Shown: in pieces, positions 42,069-44,545 of the stretch
How the letters are laid out: every line of letters begins with the position of its first letter
Numbering within the stretch: the first letter of the stretch is position 1
From: an uncultured Gammaproteobacteria bacterium
GTDB taxonomy: Bacteria > Pseudomonadota > Gammaproteobacteria > JAUZRS01
DNA: 44,545 nt
Reading direction: 5' to 3'
NCBI GenBank assembly: GCA_964615985.1
Contig: CAZTQX010000002.1
Location: 7,805 to 52,349 of the forward strand
Made by a program: the position numbers and the translations under genes
The notes under the pieces: model-generated
The model's input: only the letters and a program-made list of their open reading frames with translations
What the model was told of the DNA's origin: nothing
The model's database searches: none

Positions 42069-42542
42069 ATGGCTGAACTTCCCATCAAAATGCAAAAAAT
42101 CAACACCCTCTATCGAACCTTCACCCTCTCCACTCTGCTGCTTTTGAGCAGCGCTTGCAGCCTCATCCCCACTAAAAGCCCCCTATCTCCCATCGCAGCA
42201 GCACTGCCGCCAAAACAGTACGACTCTCCTTTGGAGCAAAAGGTCGATGAAGTGATGCAATGCATTCAAGAAAAGTGTGAACAGCAGCTCGAAAAACGCT
42301 TTGTACTCAAGGAAATGAGTTACGACAACTACAACCAGTGGGCGAGAACCGACATCGACTACCTGTTTGAAAACGCCAAGCTTCAGTGTGACAAACCCTA
42401 CCAAGATCTGCGCTGGGAGGCTCTGAAAAAACGCATGTCAGCCAAACAACTGGAGAACAGTTACAACAAGGAGGGCTTACAGATGTGCATTCAGAGCATT
42501 GCCAGCGGCTGGCGCAAGCAGCCGAAAGATGGGGCGAAGTGA
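42069..42542 (+). CDS. Hypothetical lipoprotein (157 aa) with four Cys in the mature part
   Basis: Lipobox LLSSAC after a hydrophobic stretch. No family recognised. The start could be the internal ATG (MQKIN). Confidence 0.55.
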   Translation: MAELPIKMQKINTLYRTFTLSTLLLLSSACSLIPTKSPLSPIAAALPPKQYDSPLEQKVDEVMQCIQEKCEQQLEKRFVLKEMSYDNYNQWARTDIDYLFENAKLQCDKPYQDLRWEALKKRMSAKQLENSYNKEGLQMCIQSIASGWRKQPKDGAK

Positions 42543-42562
42543 AGGTTTAATGATGGCCGTAT

Positions 42563-42994
42563 CTATTGGTTTAACCTGCCGTCTTCCAGTTGAGCTATCA
42601 CCATTTTTTTGATTTTGGTAGACGATGTTCGTGGATGGTATTTAATTTGAATTACTTTTTTTCCTTGCACATTAAAGTAGTTTTCCACATTCTGATTATG
42701 CGGCTTTCTGCCCCAGTCTTCGCCGATAACAAAAATATCCGCTTTAACTTCCTTACAAACCGTCAGATAATCCAATTCATGATATGGCAATACAATGTCC
42801 ACGCAACGCAGTGCTTGCAGCATTTCAATCCGTTGTTCAAGCGGCACAATAGGAATTCTGGGTTTGTACAGCTTGACCACCTCATCAGACGCAACACCAA
42901 CCGCAACCGTATCGCCCAGTGTGGCACAGTATTCCAACAAGGCCAGATGCCCAACATGCAACAGATCAAACGTACCCACCGTATAGACGACCAT
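42563..42994 (-). CDS. Cytidylyltransferase of the TagD / glycerol-3-phosphate- or phosphoalcohol-cytidylyltransferase family (143 aa)
   Basis: VYTVGTFDLLHVGHLALLE (HxGH nucleotidyltransferase motif) and C-terminal RTSSTKIK (RTxGISTT-like). AGGAG lies 12 nt before ATG 42994; the track TTG 43006 abuts the RBS. Confidence 0.85.
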   Translation of the reverse strand: MVVYTVGTFDLLHVGHLALLEYCATLGDTVAVGVASDEVVKLYKPRIPIVPLEQRIEMLQALRCVDIVLPYHELDYLTVCKEVKADIFVIGEDWGRKPHNQNVENYFNVQGKKVIQIKYHPRTSSTKIKKMVIAQLEDGRLNQ

Positions 42995-43062
42995 TTTTCT
43001 ATTCAACTCCTAAATTAAAACATTCACGCCATTATTTTTATCAAACTTTTCTTTTTATTTTT

Positions 43063-43716
43063 CTACATGAGTTTTGCACCGTAGATTGCCGTTATGCCAA
43101 GAGTATAAGCAGCCAAGATCCAAACATTAATTGGGTTACCAGACAGCTTGGGGGTTTTGAGTTGCGACACATTTAAAGCCGCCAGTGCTAAACCACTCAG
43201 ATACAGCACAACGGAAAATTCACCAACACTAAAAAACCCTTCGAACAAAAACACCGCAACCAGTATGAGATTATTATTATCCAGCGCCAAACCGGTGTAC
43301 TTCGACCCACCCGCAAGACCAAACACACTGAAATAACTCAATCTTATTGCGCTAGCGGAGAGCATTAAAAAAGCCCCCACCAAAAAAAAGGGCTCAAATT
43401 TTCCATAGCTGAGCAGAAGCACAGCCGGTGCAACGCCGTAACTCACAATGTCGATTAGGACATCAAGCTGCCCTCCAAAGGCACGGTCATCACCGGTTCG
43501 CCCCTTCATTCTTCGTGCAACAAGCCCATCAGCCCAGTCAAAGGCAACCGCCCAGACCATCCCAATCATGGCCGCTGAATAAACACCCAATATACTGAAA
43601 TAAATGGCCAATAACGTACAAGCCAAACCGGCCAAGGAACAGAGATTGGGCAGATCTTTTACATAAGAAAGAATCGTCGGCGGTAAGGCTTTGTTTTTCA
43701 CATCAACGGTCATCAT
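43063..43716 (-). CDS. CDP-alcohol phosphatidyltransferase family membrane protein (217 aa)
   Basis: DWADGLVARRMKGRTGDDRAFGGQLDVLIDIV, that is D-x2-DG-x2-AR-x12-G-x3-D-x3-D. Multiple hydrophobic helices. AGGA RBS. Confidence 0.85.
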   Translation of the reverse strand: MMTVDVKNKALPPTILSYVKDLPNLCSLAGLACTLLAIYFSILGVYSAAMIGMVWAVAFDWADGLVARRMKGRTGDDRAFGGQLDVLIDIVSYGVAPAVLLLSYGKFEPFFLVGAFLMLSASAIRLSYFSVFGLAGGSKYTGLALDNNNLILVAVFLFEGFFSVGEFSVVLYLSGLALAALNVSQLKTPKLSGNPINVWILAAYTLGITAIYGAKLM

Positions 43717-43744
43717 CGTTATCCTAAACTTTAAAAATCATTAT

Positions 43745-44401
43745 TTATATTCGCAATAAAACAGTCTCTAAGCTGTGCCGTGACTTAGGAATTTTTGCAT
43801 TAGGGTCATCATCAGGATGGTGATAACCAATCGCCAAAGCGACATCGCACTGATAACCTGCCAACTCTTTTACGAACTCCTGATTAACCAACTCCGTATC
43901 AATGCCCTCCATCGGCGTGGAGTCTATTTTTAGCCGTGCTAACGTGTGCAGCGTATTACCCAAAGCAAGATACGTTTGTGCTTTTGTCCAACCGCTGGTG
44001 TCTCCCGCTGCATCGGTATTCAACTCTGCAAACATAAAAACACCGAAGGCCTTTTCTCGCTCTTCTGCTGTTATGCGCTGATCCTCAATGGCTTTATCCA
44101 CCACTTTGGCGTAATCATCGCGCGTGTAACGGGGGTTGTAAGCAAAAAGAATAATCTGTGAGCTATCAAAAACATGAGACTGATTGTATTGATGCTTCTG
44201 AGCAAAGGTTTTACTCATGCGCTCTTTTGCTTCACGACTCTCAATCACCACGAATTTCCACGGTTGTGAGTTAATGGATGAAGCAGACAGGCGCATGGCC
44301 TCAAAAAGCACATTCAGATTCTCTTGAGACACTTTTTTATTGGCATCGTATTTTTTGGTCGCATGTCGCCAAAGCAGATCTTCTATGATCGGATGAATCA
44401 T
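43745..44401 (-). CDS. NAD(P)H nitroreductase family protein (NfsB-like)
   Basis: RHATKKYD..LNVLFEAMRLSASSINSQPWKFVVI is the typical nitroreductase N-terminal FMN-binding pattern. 218 aa. Confidence 0.88.
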   Translation of the reverse strand: MIHPIIEDLLWRHATKKYDANKKVSQENLNVLFEAMRLSASSINSQPWKFVVIESREAKERMSKTFAQKHQYNQSHVFDSSQIILFAYNPRYTRDDYAKVVDKAIEDQRITAEEREKAFGVFMFAELNTDAAGDTSGWTKAQTYLALGNTLHTLARLKIDSTPMEGIDTELVNQEFVKELAGYQCDVALAIGYHHPDDDPNAKIPKSRHSLETVLLRI

Positions 44402-44545
44402 CTATTGCTGGACTCCTAATGGGTTCCTGAGGGAGGGAATCTGAGTAAGGCTGAAAAAACTGAGGCAACAAGAGATTTACTCGTTTAAAAATAACGTAAC
44501 TACTCAGCCCACCGATAACGTGCAACCTATTGATAATAAAAGATA

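Follow-up and report, generated by a model that had tools for sequence, protein, structure and literature searches.

In textbook accounts, bacterial phospholipids obtain their head groups by way of CDP-diacylglycerol, and the bacterial routes of Kennedy type that we know of come from only a few host-associated species. In the Kennedy pathway and in the LicCA-CPT system of Treponema denticola, a soluble cytidylyltransferase acts first, followed by a membrane enzyme of the CDP-alcohol phosphotransferase family. Members of this family differ in donor and product: bacterial Pcs, which has an x12 spacing in its motif, uses CDP-diacylglycerol, and DIPPS is a membrane enzyme of the family that makes a solute. 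To our knowledge, phosphodiester solutes of the latter kind are confined to hyperthermophiles.

The locus considered here lies at one end of the window, i.e., the whole 44,545-nt stretch of DNA that was analyzed, from an uncultured gammaproteobacterium of a vent. It places a CDP-alcohol phosphotransferase (PT) beside a small cytidylyltransferase (CT), and it most likely represents a route that joins a CTP-activated polar head group to a membrane lipid and has not been described for bacteria; no description of the CT-PT pair was found in the literature searched. The features are as follows.

42543..42562, no strand: island boundary; synteny with same-genus genomes stops at ~42550
42563..42994, minus strand: CT gene, 143 aa, HxGH-type cytidylyltransferase, PF01467
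42995..43062, minus strand: PT-CT spacer, 68 nt with the ATG start, Shine-Dalgarno AGGAG
43063..43716, minus strand: PT gene, 217 aa, CDP-alcohol phosphotransferase of the x12 subfamily
43717..43744, minus strand: spacer between the nitroreductase (NR) gene and PT, 28 nt, Shine-Dalgarno AGGA, terminator-like site absent
43745..44401, minus strand: NR gene, 218 aa, NfsB-like nitroreductase, PF00881
44402..44545, minus strand: region upstream of NR up to the contig end

The layout in the first-pass annotation, three minus-strand genes separated by 28 and 68 nt, is borne out by the list of open reading frames, and its by-eye impression of an AT-richer block now has figures behind it: GC content is 43.7%, compared with a genome value of 50.8%, and ranks at the 1.5th percentile among 4242 equal-length windows of the genome, and GC3 of the block genes is 45-48% against 57% in the neighboring Ldt gene. 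The three proposed Pfam assignments all score above their gathering thresholds, and both of the CT motifs that had been quoted (LLHVGH and PRTSSTKIK) are present. The CT start is likely the ATG at 42994, which is preceded by AGGAG; the alternative TTG at 43006 (ORF 42563-43006) directly abuts AGGAG and is less plausible. In the 44 tandem loci, the median PT-CT spacer is 53 nt. No terminator-like sites were found between the three genes, and from this layout their co-transcription is plausible. Contigs from RNA libraries match NR in part, at 99% identity, and a relative's CT in part, at ~90% identity; these are weak evidence of expression, as DNA can occur in such libraries. Only parts of CT and NR are covered by them, and their gaps, including PT, carry no evidential weight. 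Contigs from DNA runs, at 85% likeness, leave none of the 30 bins of the stretch uncovered. A search against Rfam revealed tRNAs near two of the loci but no leader RNA.

Related loci show that the functional unit is smaller than the annotated operon. Among 83 locus contexts, taken from a related-locus search and a genome search, CT adjoins PT in 76, in tandem or divergent order and across many marine phyla. Pairwise distances of the two proteins are correlated (r = 0.40; Mantel test, none of 999 permutations as high). Apart from CT and PT, no neighbor cluster occurs in more than 15 of the 83 loci, and the sole recurring one is the nitroreductase, found in 15 loci and in three arrangements; the immediate neighbors (n = 118) carry 176 Pfam families. 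The functional unit is thus PT plus CT, a tightly co-conserved pair, as the earlier pairing of the two had suggested. The three-gene operon does not hold up as a unit, since the nitroreductase, present in so few loci, is an optional passenger. NR itself passes PF00881 (69 bits; gathering score 23.5) and falls short of the NfsB model PRK11053 (176.5 bits against a cut-off of 227).

The cassette is foreign to its host and has spread horizontally. Carriers include Gamma-, Alpha-, Zeta- and Betaproteobacteria, Campylobacterota, Verrucomicrobiota and Myxococcota, psychrophiles and cold deep-sea genera among them; the type strain of Psychromonas hadalis is a cultured carrier. Within the host class, the distribution is patchy, with the cassette in 15 of 400 sampled genomes (~4%) and 12 of 320 genera. 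In same-genus genomes, the site is empty at this locus and the cassette lies elsewhere; synteny with them ends at the 3' end of a convergent lipoprotein gene (42069-42542). At the other end, the last ~55 nt of the contig (44491-44545) belong to a dispersed repeat of 50-64 nt, of which they form one copy and at which the assembly breaks. An IS element at this end was ruled out: contig C178, which the repeat flanks, codes for Fer4 and NarI-like proteins and for no transposase. Purifying selection on both proteins is very strong (dN/dS 0.04-0.07 for the cassette genes, dS saturated); one genome retains the two genes in decayed form. Since synonymous sites are saturated, very recent transfer can also be ruled out as an explanation for protein identities of 70-85%. 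No relative of the cassette was found on viral contigs, and plasmid matches are only 32-36% identical and belong to another system, a rhizobial one of kinase and NTP-transferase type. There, the distant PT homologs sit with NTP-transferase, GHMP kinase, and catabolic or transport genes.

PT passes PF01066 (40.9 bits; cut-off 22) and carries on TM2-TM3 the catalytic motif D60-x2-D63-G-x2-A-R68-x12-G81-x3-D85-x3-D89, in which D60, D63, G64, A67, R68, G81, D85 and D89 are invariant in 73 orthologs. Its AF2 model (pLDDT 91.9) has a PssA-like helical architecture, and the best Foldseek match is the phosphatidylserine synthase of M. jannaschii (7b1k/7pow; TM 0.69-0.77), ahead of DIPPS (4mnd; TM 0.53) and CHPT1/CEPT1 (TM 0.44 or less). 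Nevertheless, PT misses the models for PssA (TIGR00473, 64 against 107), archaetidylserine synthase (NF038087, 86 against 240), Pcs (NCBIfam, 16-19 bits against cut-offs of 300-440, despite the shared x12 spacing) and PgsA (equivalog, 17 against 304). The host encodes its own PssA, with an x8 motif, on contig C29 and its own PgsA on C77. Judged by these profiles and separate genes, PT is not the housekeeping PssA or PgsA, a placement that the first-pass annotation had named as fatal to its proposal.

CT likewise belongs clearly to its superfamily (PF01467, 77 bits against 21; HVGH and PRTSSTKIK present), and H13, G15 and H16 are invariant in 67 orthologs. The best folds for its AF2 model (pLDDT 90.5) are the Fom1 CyTase, HldC, 3glv and TagD, all at ~33% identity. 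Among solved structures, the best profile matches are human phosphoethanolamine cytidylyltransferase (80.5 bits) and the Fom1 2-hydroxyethylphosphonate cytidylyltransferase (73 bits), both of which act on two-carbon X-CH2-CH2-P substrates. CT falls below every NCBIfam equivalog cut-off, including that of TagD (TIGR01518, 63 against 165); the best score is for the heptose-1-phosphate adenylyltransferase domain (TIGR02199, domain II of RfaE/HldE; 90 against 181.5), and the gathering score for FAD synthetase is also missed (PF06574, 19.9 against 27). The host's true HldE (482 aa, 202 bits) is encoded on contig C59, and CT is neither this RfaE/HldE enzyme nor an FAD synthase, the two identities that had been named as refuting the proposal. 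The CT clade is discrete, with no other relative above 38% identity. A search for longer proteins in which CT is fused to another part turned up nothing informative (one transposase-fragment fusion, the others HldE-type), and the ESM Atlas returned the family name only.

A guide to function comes from the nearest relatives of PT. PTs partnered with an HxGH CT form one clade (SH-aLRT 100) on a long stem, within a 98-supported clade that also holds PTs 51-61% identical to them. In 80 metagenome loci, these sister PTs never have an HxGH CT beside them; their neighbors are an NTP_transf_3/LicC-like CT and a CobD-like PLP enzyme (TIGR01140, 187 bits), optionally with a Metallophos gene or, often, a PmtA-like SAM methyltransferase. 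The CobD-like enzyme is predicted from its sequence to be a phospho-amino-acid decarboxylase. Fifty PT positions are kept at 97% or more across both cassette types, and only three discriminate between them (Y46/F, Y93/F and S184/A), each of which adds a hydroxyl in the HxGH clade. That one PT lineage has been combined with two non-homologous CT families argues for a PT donor that is a CDP-activated small head group rather than CDP-diacylglycerol. Because the nearest PT relatives pair with a LicC-type CT and a CobD-like decarboxylase with the PT core almost unchanged, an ethanolamine- or serine-type amino-alcohol is, by analogy, the most likely head group.

From these comparisons we infer substrates, product and physiological role as follows. 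On the chemistry of its family, the soluble HxGH CT would join CTP to a small, widely available phospho- or phosphono-alcohol, giving CDP-X (or CMP-X). The PssA-like membrane PT would then use its D-x2-DG-x2-AR-x12-G-x3-D-x3-D site to pass phospho-X on from CDP-X to a membrane alcohol, at its hydroxyl, with release of CMP. The acceptor would most likely be diacylglycerol, an assumption based on membrane location and the PssA-like fold, and the result would be a phospholipid made without CDP-diacylglycerol. Taken together, PT and CT may make up a self-contained module of two genes, spread horizontally, that handles a CDP-activated head group in a Kennedy-type lipid route, a reading to which we give even chances. 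The earlier suggestion of a Kennedy-like pathway is strengthened by the sister clade with its different CT family and CobD-like decarboxylase. Several points count against the reading: CT stands equally far (~33% identity) from Fom1, HldC and TagD, and homology does not fix X; the PT fold is far from the diacylglycerol-using eukaryotic CPT/EPT; and it is not evident what a cell would gain from a redundant PE/PS route.

Also on this side, no gene for supplying the head group is part of the cassette, and searches of the host genome found no choline/ethanolamine kinase, no CobD-like enzyme of the sister type, no PEP mutase and no PhnW; a source of phosphoethanolamine or 2-aminoethylphosphonate (AEP) is therefore unexplained. 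Given a cassette without decarboxylase in a host without ethanolamine kinase, X may be phosphoserine, or else scavenged phosphoethanolamine or AEP. If it is phosphoserine, the product would be PS, which the host would decarboxylate to PE. CDP-serine is not a metabolite known to us, and a literature search for it returned only an unrelated mention. A more detailed version can be put forward tentatively, as a doubtful conjecture: in a CdsA- and kinase-independent route, the HxGH CT would form CDP-serine, or else a CDP/CMP-aminoalcohol if it draws on scavenged phosphoethanolamine or AEP, and the x12 PT would attach either product to diacylglycerol, so that marine bacteria could re-head diacylglycerol pools to PS/PE-type or phosphonate lipids, with Y46, Y93 and S184 marking the donor switch from the decarboxylase-fed sister cassettes.

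Other acceptors and donors are conceivable. CT might make CDP-glycerol (or CDP-ethanolamine) and PT add the phospho-alcohol to a lipid-linked glycan, an LPS/LOS precursor or another membrane-anchored glycoconjugate at the cytoplasmic face; a changed surface, e.g., for evasion of phages or grazers, would explain the spread as a flexible gene, and genes of surface variation typically show such a patchy, island-like distribution. Outside the cassettes, the nearest relatives of CT (32-38% identity) do sit in clusters for polysaccharides that also hold GT2, GDP-mannose dehydratase and Asn-synthase-like genes, and a G3P cytidylyltransferase has been reported beside a CDP-alcohol phosphatidyltransferase in a cell-wall polysaccharide/phage-receptor cluster of an Actinomyces host (PMC11032452). 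However, no glycosyltransferase, flippase or polysaccharide gene is co-conserved in the 83 loci, PADLOC gave no match for any of four genes, and an acceptor common to all seven carrier groups listed above would be needed. With the sister cassettes pointing to an amino-alcohol lipid head group, decoration of the envelope appears rather unlikely. A soluble product is a little less probable again. PT would then join CDP-X to a soluble alcohol (or its phosphate), and the phosphodiester formed, such as DIP, GPI or diglycerol phosphate, would be a compatible solute or a small signaling or opine-like compound; an occasional neighboring phosphoesterase would remove its terminal phosphate. DIPPS sets the precedent for such a membrane enzyme, the rhizobial-plasmid homologs have a layout resembling such a system, and phosphoesterases, representing three folds, turn up repeatedly in the vicinity of the cassette (5 loci with Phosphodiest, 3 with Metallophos, 5 with PHP), but in only ~15% of loci. 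The PmtA-like methyltransferase of many sister cassettes fits lipid head-group chemistry instead, and the hyperthermophile-only occurrence of the known solutes sits poorly with carriers from the cold deep sea. The inositol solute of IPCT/DIPPS type, the other pathway offered by the first-pass annotation, is unlikely in particular: the 96.4%-complete genome has no match to inositol-1-phosphate synthase (PF01658), the PT fold is much closer to lipid-using PssA (TM 0.71-0.77) than to DIPPS (0.53), and hosts include psychrophiles.

Seawater is rich in AEP, and a phosphonolipid can also be envisaged, in which CT would cytidylylate imported AEP (or hydroxyethylphosphonate) and PT would attach it to diacylglycerol, yielding phospholipase-resistant lipids without PEP mutase. 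CT finds its best match, by both structure and sequence, in the Fom1 cytidylyltransferase domain, though HldC and TagD resemble CT no less. Of PEP mutases, 23.6% carry a fused PF01467 domain (PMC6697681), and two of five other cassette carriers searched encode, elsewhere in the genome, a bona fide PEP mutase with a CT-sized fusion. The enzyme is nevertheless absent from the other three and from the host, which also has no detectable PhnW, and no phosphonate transporter or other phosphonate gene is co-conserved with the cassette, which makes phosphonolipid synthesis improbable. Least probable of all is that the two proteins work apart, PT as a second PssA- or Pcs-like enzyme on CDP-diacylglycerol and a small alcohol, and CT on an unrelated nucleotide-activated compound. 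The fold and best family scores of PT, which are PssA- or archaetidylserine-synthase-like, would suit this, as would the x12 spacing also seen in CDP-diacylglycerol-using Pcs. Such independence is hard to reconcile with an adjacency kept in two gene orders and many phyla without a third partner, with the recruitment of two unrelated CT families by one PT lineage, and with PT scores far below the Pcs and PssA cut-offs.

If the Kennedy-type reading is right and the cassette makes a lipid, it would be an unrecognized, transferable route of membrane remodeling in the ocean. PT and CT would also provide two small, easily expressed enzymes with which donor specificity in the CDP-alcohol transferase family could be defined, and their kinship with the LicC/CobD cassettes amounts to a natural experiment in swapping of the activating enzyme.

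Compared with described enzymes, PT is closest to Type II PssA, represented by the M. jannaschii synthase, its best match in both structure and sequence over the full length of PT, with the catalytic Asp motif in common. Identity is only 25%, however, and the spacing is x12 rather than x8; PssA does without a cytidylyltransferase, whereas PT is an obligate partner of one. CT has the HxGH fold in common with the Fom1 CyTase, TagD, HldC and HldE domain II (31-34% identity; target-normalized TM 0.64-0.83) and is equidistant from Fom1, TagD and HldC. The IPCT/DIPPS and GCT/GPIPS systems of hyperthermophiles employ the same two enzyme classes in series, but IPCT is of NTP_transf_3 type and usually fused to DIPPS, whereas the present CT is of HxGH type and its hosts are mesophilic or psychrophilic. 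The LicC/CobD cassettes differ in their non-homologous CT, PLP decarboxylase and methyltransferase; they share the x12 PT subfamily with its 50-position core and are likewise mobile in marine metagenomes. With the Kennedy pathway and the T. denticola system, the cassette shares the order of soluble CT and membrane transferase, and CT has the HxGH fold of ECT and CCT. In contrast to the roughly 390-aa CPT/EPT of that pathway, PT has 217 aa, PssA architecture and x12 spacing. Neither the cassette nor its host has a kinase for the head group, and the cassette is a mobile two-gene unit in marine bacteria.

Three minus-strand genes at the end of the window, read in the first-pass annotation as a nitroreductase (NR), a CDP-alcohol phosphatidyltransferase (PT) and an HxGH cytidylyltransferase (CT), were confirmed as real ORFs, and PF01467, PF01066 and PF00881 were each matched above the gathering score. 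The ORF list places them as follows.

42563-43006 from TTG, more plausibly 42563-42994 from an ATG downstream of AGGAG; minus strand; CT
43063-43716; minus strand; PT
43745-44401; minus strand; NR

The 28-nt and 68-nt gaps recorded earlier match the spacers exactly, the latter holding with the ATG start of CT. The block had also appeared AT-richer by eye, and its calculated GC content is indeed 43.7% vs 50.8% genome-wide, at the 1.5th percentile of windows of equal length in the 2.43-Mb genome; the GC3 of its genes lies below that of the flanking Ldt gene. The window occupies positions 7805-52349 of contig C2 in genome G000, leaving 144 nt upstream of NR before the end of the contig.

The three genes were initially read as one operon. 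Across 83 loci, however, the conserved unit is PT plus CT, which remain paired as neighbors in 76, and NR is present in 15. In most of the loci without an adjoining CT, PT lies near a contig end. The pair is found in tandem (PT then CT) in 44 loci, with a median gap of 53 nt, and divergently in 27, with a median spacer of 106 nt. Clustering of all flanking ORFs from the 83 loci yielded no other co-conserved family in more than 15 loci, and the 118 immediate neighbors of the cassette represent 176 different Pfam families. NR is the sole recurrent neighbor (14 of the 118) and occurs in three arrangements: before PT and CT, as in the window; after both, as in locus L087; or directly after PT, where four Campylobacterota loci carry a 211-aa NfsB-like protein only 26-29% identical to the window NR. 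Thus, NR is a non-random but optional passenger. Less frequent neighbors include Zn-dependent quinone-oxidoreductase-like genes (4 loci) and phosphoesterases of three folds (Phosphodiest in 5 loci, PHP in 5, Metallophos in 3).

Homologues of PT with 70-85% identity are present in MAGs and isolates, nearly all from marine, vent or plume samples. Gammaproteobacterial carriers include Methylophaga, Cycloclasticus, Thiotrichaceae, Halioglobus, Colwellia, Kangiella, Psychromonas hadalis and Amphritea; others belong to the Alpha-, Beta- and Zetaproteobacteria, Campylobacterota (Sulfurimonas, Arcobacter), Verrucomicrobiota and Myxococcota. In about 11 of the 27 divergent spacers, the palindrome TGCTATnATAGCA occurs with at most two mismatches some 70-90 nt upstream of PT (L056:4113-4205, L072:5888-6003, L091, L044, L041, L036, L061, L090). 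It is found across Gammaproteobacteria and Campylobacterota, occurs neither in the tandem arrangement nor in the window, and is probably a -10 element with an overlapping operator.

The cassette at this locus occupies an insertion site. In two same-genus genomes, synteny (MoeB-like, lipoprotein, Ldt, 157-aa lipoprotein) extends up to about 42550, past which lie genes that sit on other contigs of the window genome. These relatives carry their cassettes elsewhere, one retaining only a 42-codon NR remnant; thus, they hold "empty" alleles of the site. The 157-aa lipoprotein ORF (42069-42542, plus strand; signal LLLLSSAC), convergent with CT across a 20-nt gap, is 75-77% conserved in these genomes, lies on the host side of the island boundary and has no Pfam or NCBIfam match. 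Distribution is sparse: PT was detected in 15 of the 400 genomes sampled from the class (E <= 1e-50), and carriers occupy 12 of 320 genera among its high-quality genomes. The cassette can also be lost by decay, since in one complete 3.4-Mb genome (L105, G051:C1:1781254-1782259) PT contains six in-frame stops and CT is in pieces. Integrases or transposases adjoin it in a few other loci, and in two unrelated hosts tRNA genes lie about 0.5-1 kb away (L015:5107-5191, L053:4813-4884), consistent with tRNA hotspots as insertion sites. Even in comparisons with the closest relatives, synonymous sites are saturated, and dN/dS is 0.04-0.07; very recent spread was therefore rejected as the source of the high protein identity. 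The distances in PT and in CT are correlated (r = 0.40; Mantel 0/999 permutations), and the PT tree places Campylobacterota in one clade with the proteobacterial classes intermixed.

The contig end itself (44491-44545) carries a dispersed 50-64-nt repeat, core GGCTGAGTAGTTAC, with 29 copies in the genome, of which 27 lie no more than 120 nt from a contig end (including those of C102, C178, C26, C190, C112, C49, C32, C175, C42 and C113). The 2.5-kb contig C178, with Fer4 and NarI-like genes, is bracketed by 64-nt inverted copies with 91% complementarity. None was seen in the same-genus regions examined. An IS identity was rejected, and the repeat resembles an intergenic element of the REP or MITE kind that fragments the assembly.

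PT carries the motif D60-x2-D63-G-x2-A-R68-x12-G81-x3-D85-x3-D89, and the x12 spacing is common to all aligned members of its subfamily, which is small (42 clusters at E <= 1e-30 when 1.84 billion representatives were searched exhaustively). Its high-confidence model (pLDDT 91.9) superposes along the entire protein on Methanocaldococcus jannaschii phosphatidylserine synthase (TM 0.69-0.77, 25% identity) and fits PIP synthases, DIPPS, PgsA and eukaryotic CPT/CEPT much more poorly. It is not a housekeeping PssA or PgsA: it falls under all curated NCBIfam cut-offs (archaetidylserine synthase, 86 against 240; PssA, 64 against 107; Pcs, about 18 against at least 300), and the genome separately encodes a PssA with the x8 motif, a PgsA and one further small protein of the family.

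The nearest relatives of PT (51-61% identity) were compared in 80 metagenome loci, none of which contains an HxGH CT. Wherever flank was available, these sister PTs are preceded by an NTP_transf_3/LicC-like nucleotidyltransferase and a class I/II PLP enzyme that matches CobD threonine-phosphate decarboxylase best (187 bits, under the cut-off); a SAM methyltransferase often follows, and a Metallophos gene once. In a tree rooted with the host PssA, HxGH-partnered PTs form one long-stemmed clade (SH-aLRT 100) nested in a 98-supported clade with LicC-type PTs. A single PT lineage has therefore been combined with two unrelated cytidylyltransferase families, which argues that PT consumes their product: the predicted donor is a small molecule activated with CDP, and a CDP-diacylglycerol donor would be hard to reconcile with this pattern. 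Across the two kinds of cassette, 50 positions of PT show at least 97% conservation, and only three discriminate between them (Y46/F, Y93/F, S184/A), each gaining a hydroxyl in the HxGH-partnered clade. In L103 (5935-7641), a sister-type PT and SAM methyltransferase lie without a cytidylyltransferase between an IS91-family transposase and an rve integrase, possibly a partial cassette in transit. Rhizobial and marine alphaproteobacterial plasmids, represented by Sinorhizobium meliloti pSmeRU11a (L097, 14087-18477) and one from Roseibium aggregatum (L098), encode a remote PT homologue (about 35% identity). Its operon also contains an NTP-transferase, a GHMP kinase and amino-acid-type enzymes, and it faces genes for a DeoR regulator, an alkaline-phosphatase-family protein and an ABC binding protein; this layout resembles a system that both makes and breaks down a soluble, opine-like phosphodiester.

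CT contains the motifs HxGH and RTSSTKIK (model pLDDT 90.5) and is equally close (31-34% identity) to the Fom1 2-hydroxyethylphosphonate cytidylyltransferase domain, HldC, a Thermoplasma RfaE-like protein and TagD. When 67 orthologues were combined into a profile, its best match was human phosphoethanolamine cytidylyltransferase (ECT, 80.5 bits), followed by Fom1 (73 bits). It is not the housekeeping heptose enzyme, as a true HldE is encoded on contig C59. In the 400 genomes, CT forms a discrete clade: cassette copies are at least 64% identical, and the next relatives (at most 38%) lie in polysaccharide clusters, are fused to PEP mutase or reside within HldE.

In the proposed pathway, CT would convert CTP and phospho-X to CDP-X, from which PT would transfer phospho-X to a membrane alcohol, probably diacylglycerol, yielding an X-phospho-lipid and CMP. 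ECT and Fom1 both act on two-carbon substrates. The sister cassettes, together with the affinity of CT for these two enzymes, make an ethanolamine- or serine-type X the most likely. Since the cassette travels by itself, X is expected to be either available in any host or scavenged. Choline/ethanolamine kinase, the sister-type CobD-like enzyme, PEP mutase, PhnW and inositol-phosphate synthase were not found in the window genome, making kinase-fed choline/ethanolamine routes unlikely, as well as inositol routes such as the solute pathway cited earlier as a precedent. Candidate substrates are phosphoserine, glycerol-3-phosphate, and imported phosphoethanolamine or 2-aminoethylphosphonate (AEP).

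A rival reading in which AEP is scavenged would make the product a phosphonolipid; PEP mutase is encoded elsewhere in the genome in 2 of 5 other carriers searched, so that a phosphonate link is possible and not required. The product might alternatively decorate a glycoconjugate or be a soluble phosphodiester, and PT could also be a PssA/Pcs-like enzyme uncoupled from CT, a reading opposed by the two cytidylyltransferase families recruited to its lineage. A lipid head group of the ethanolamine or serine type remains the preferred product.

The window DNA derives from hydrothermal-vent metagenomes. In two microbial-mat metatranscriptome libraries, contigs cover part of NR (99% identity) and a relative's CT (about 90%), indicating presence in RNA libraries only, which falls short of proving transcription or an operon. 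No description of the PT and CT pair was found in full-text searches of the literature. The cassette is widespread, mobile and strongly constrained, and its predicted chemistry is a variant of the Kennedy-type, CDP-alcohol head-group kind.
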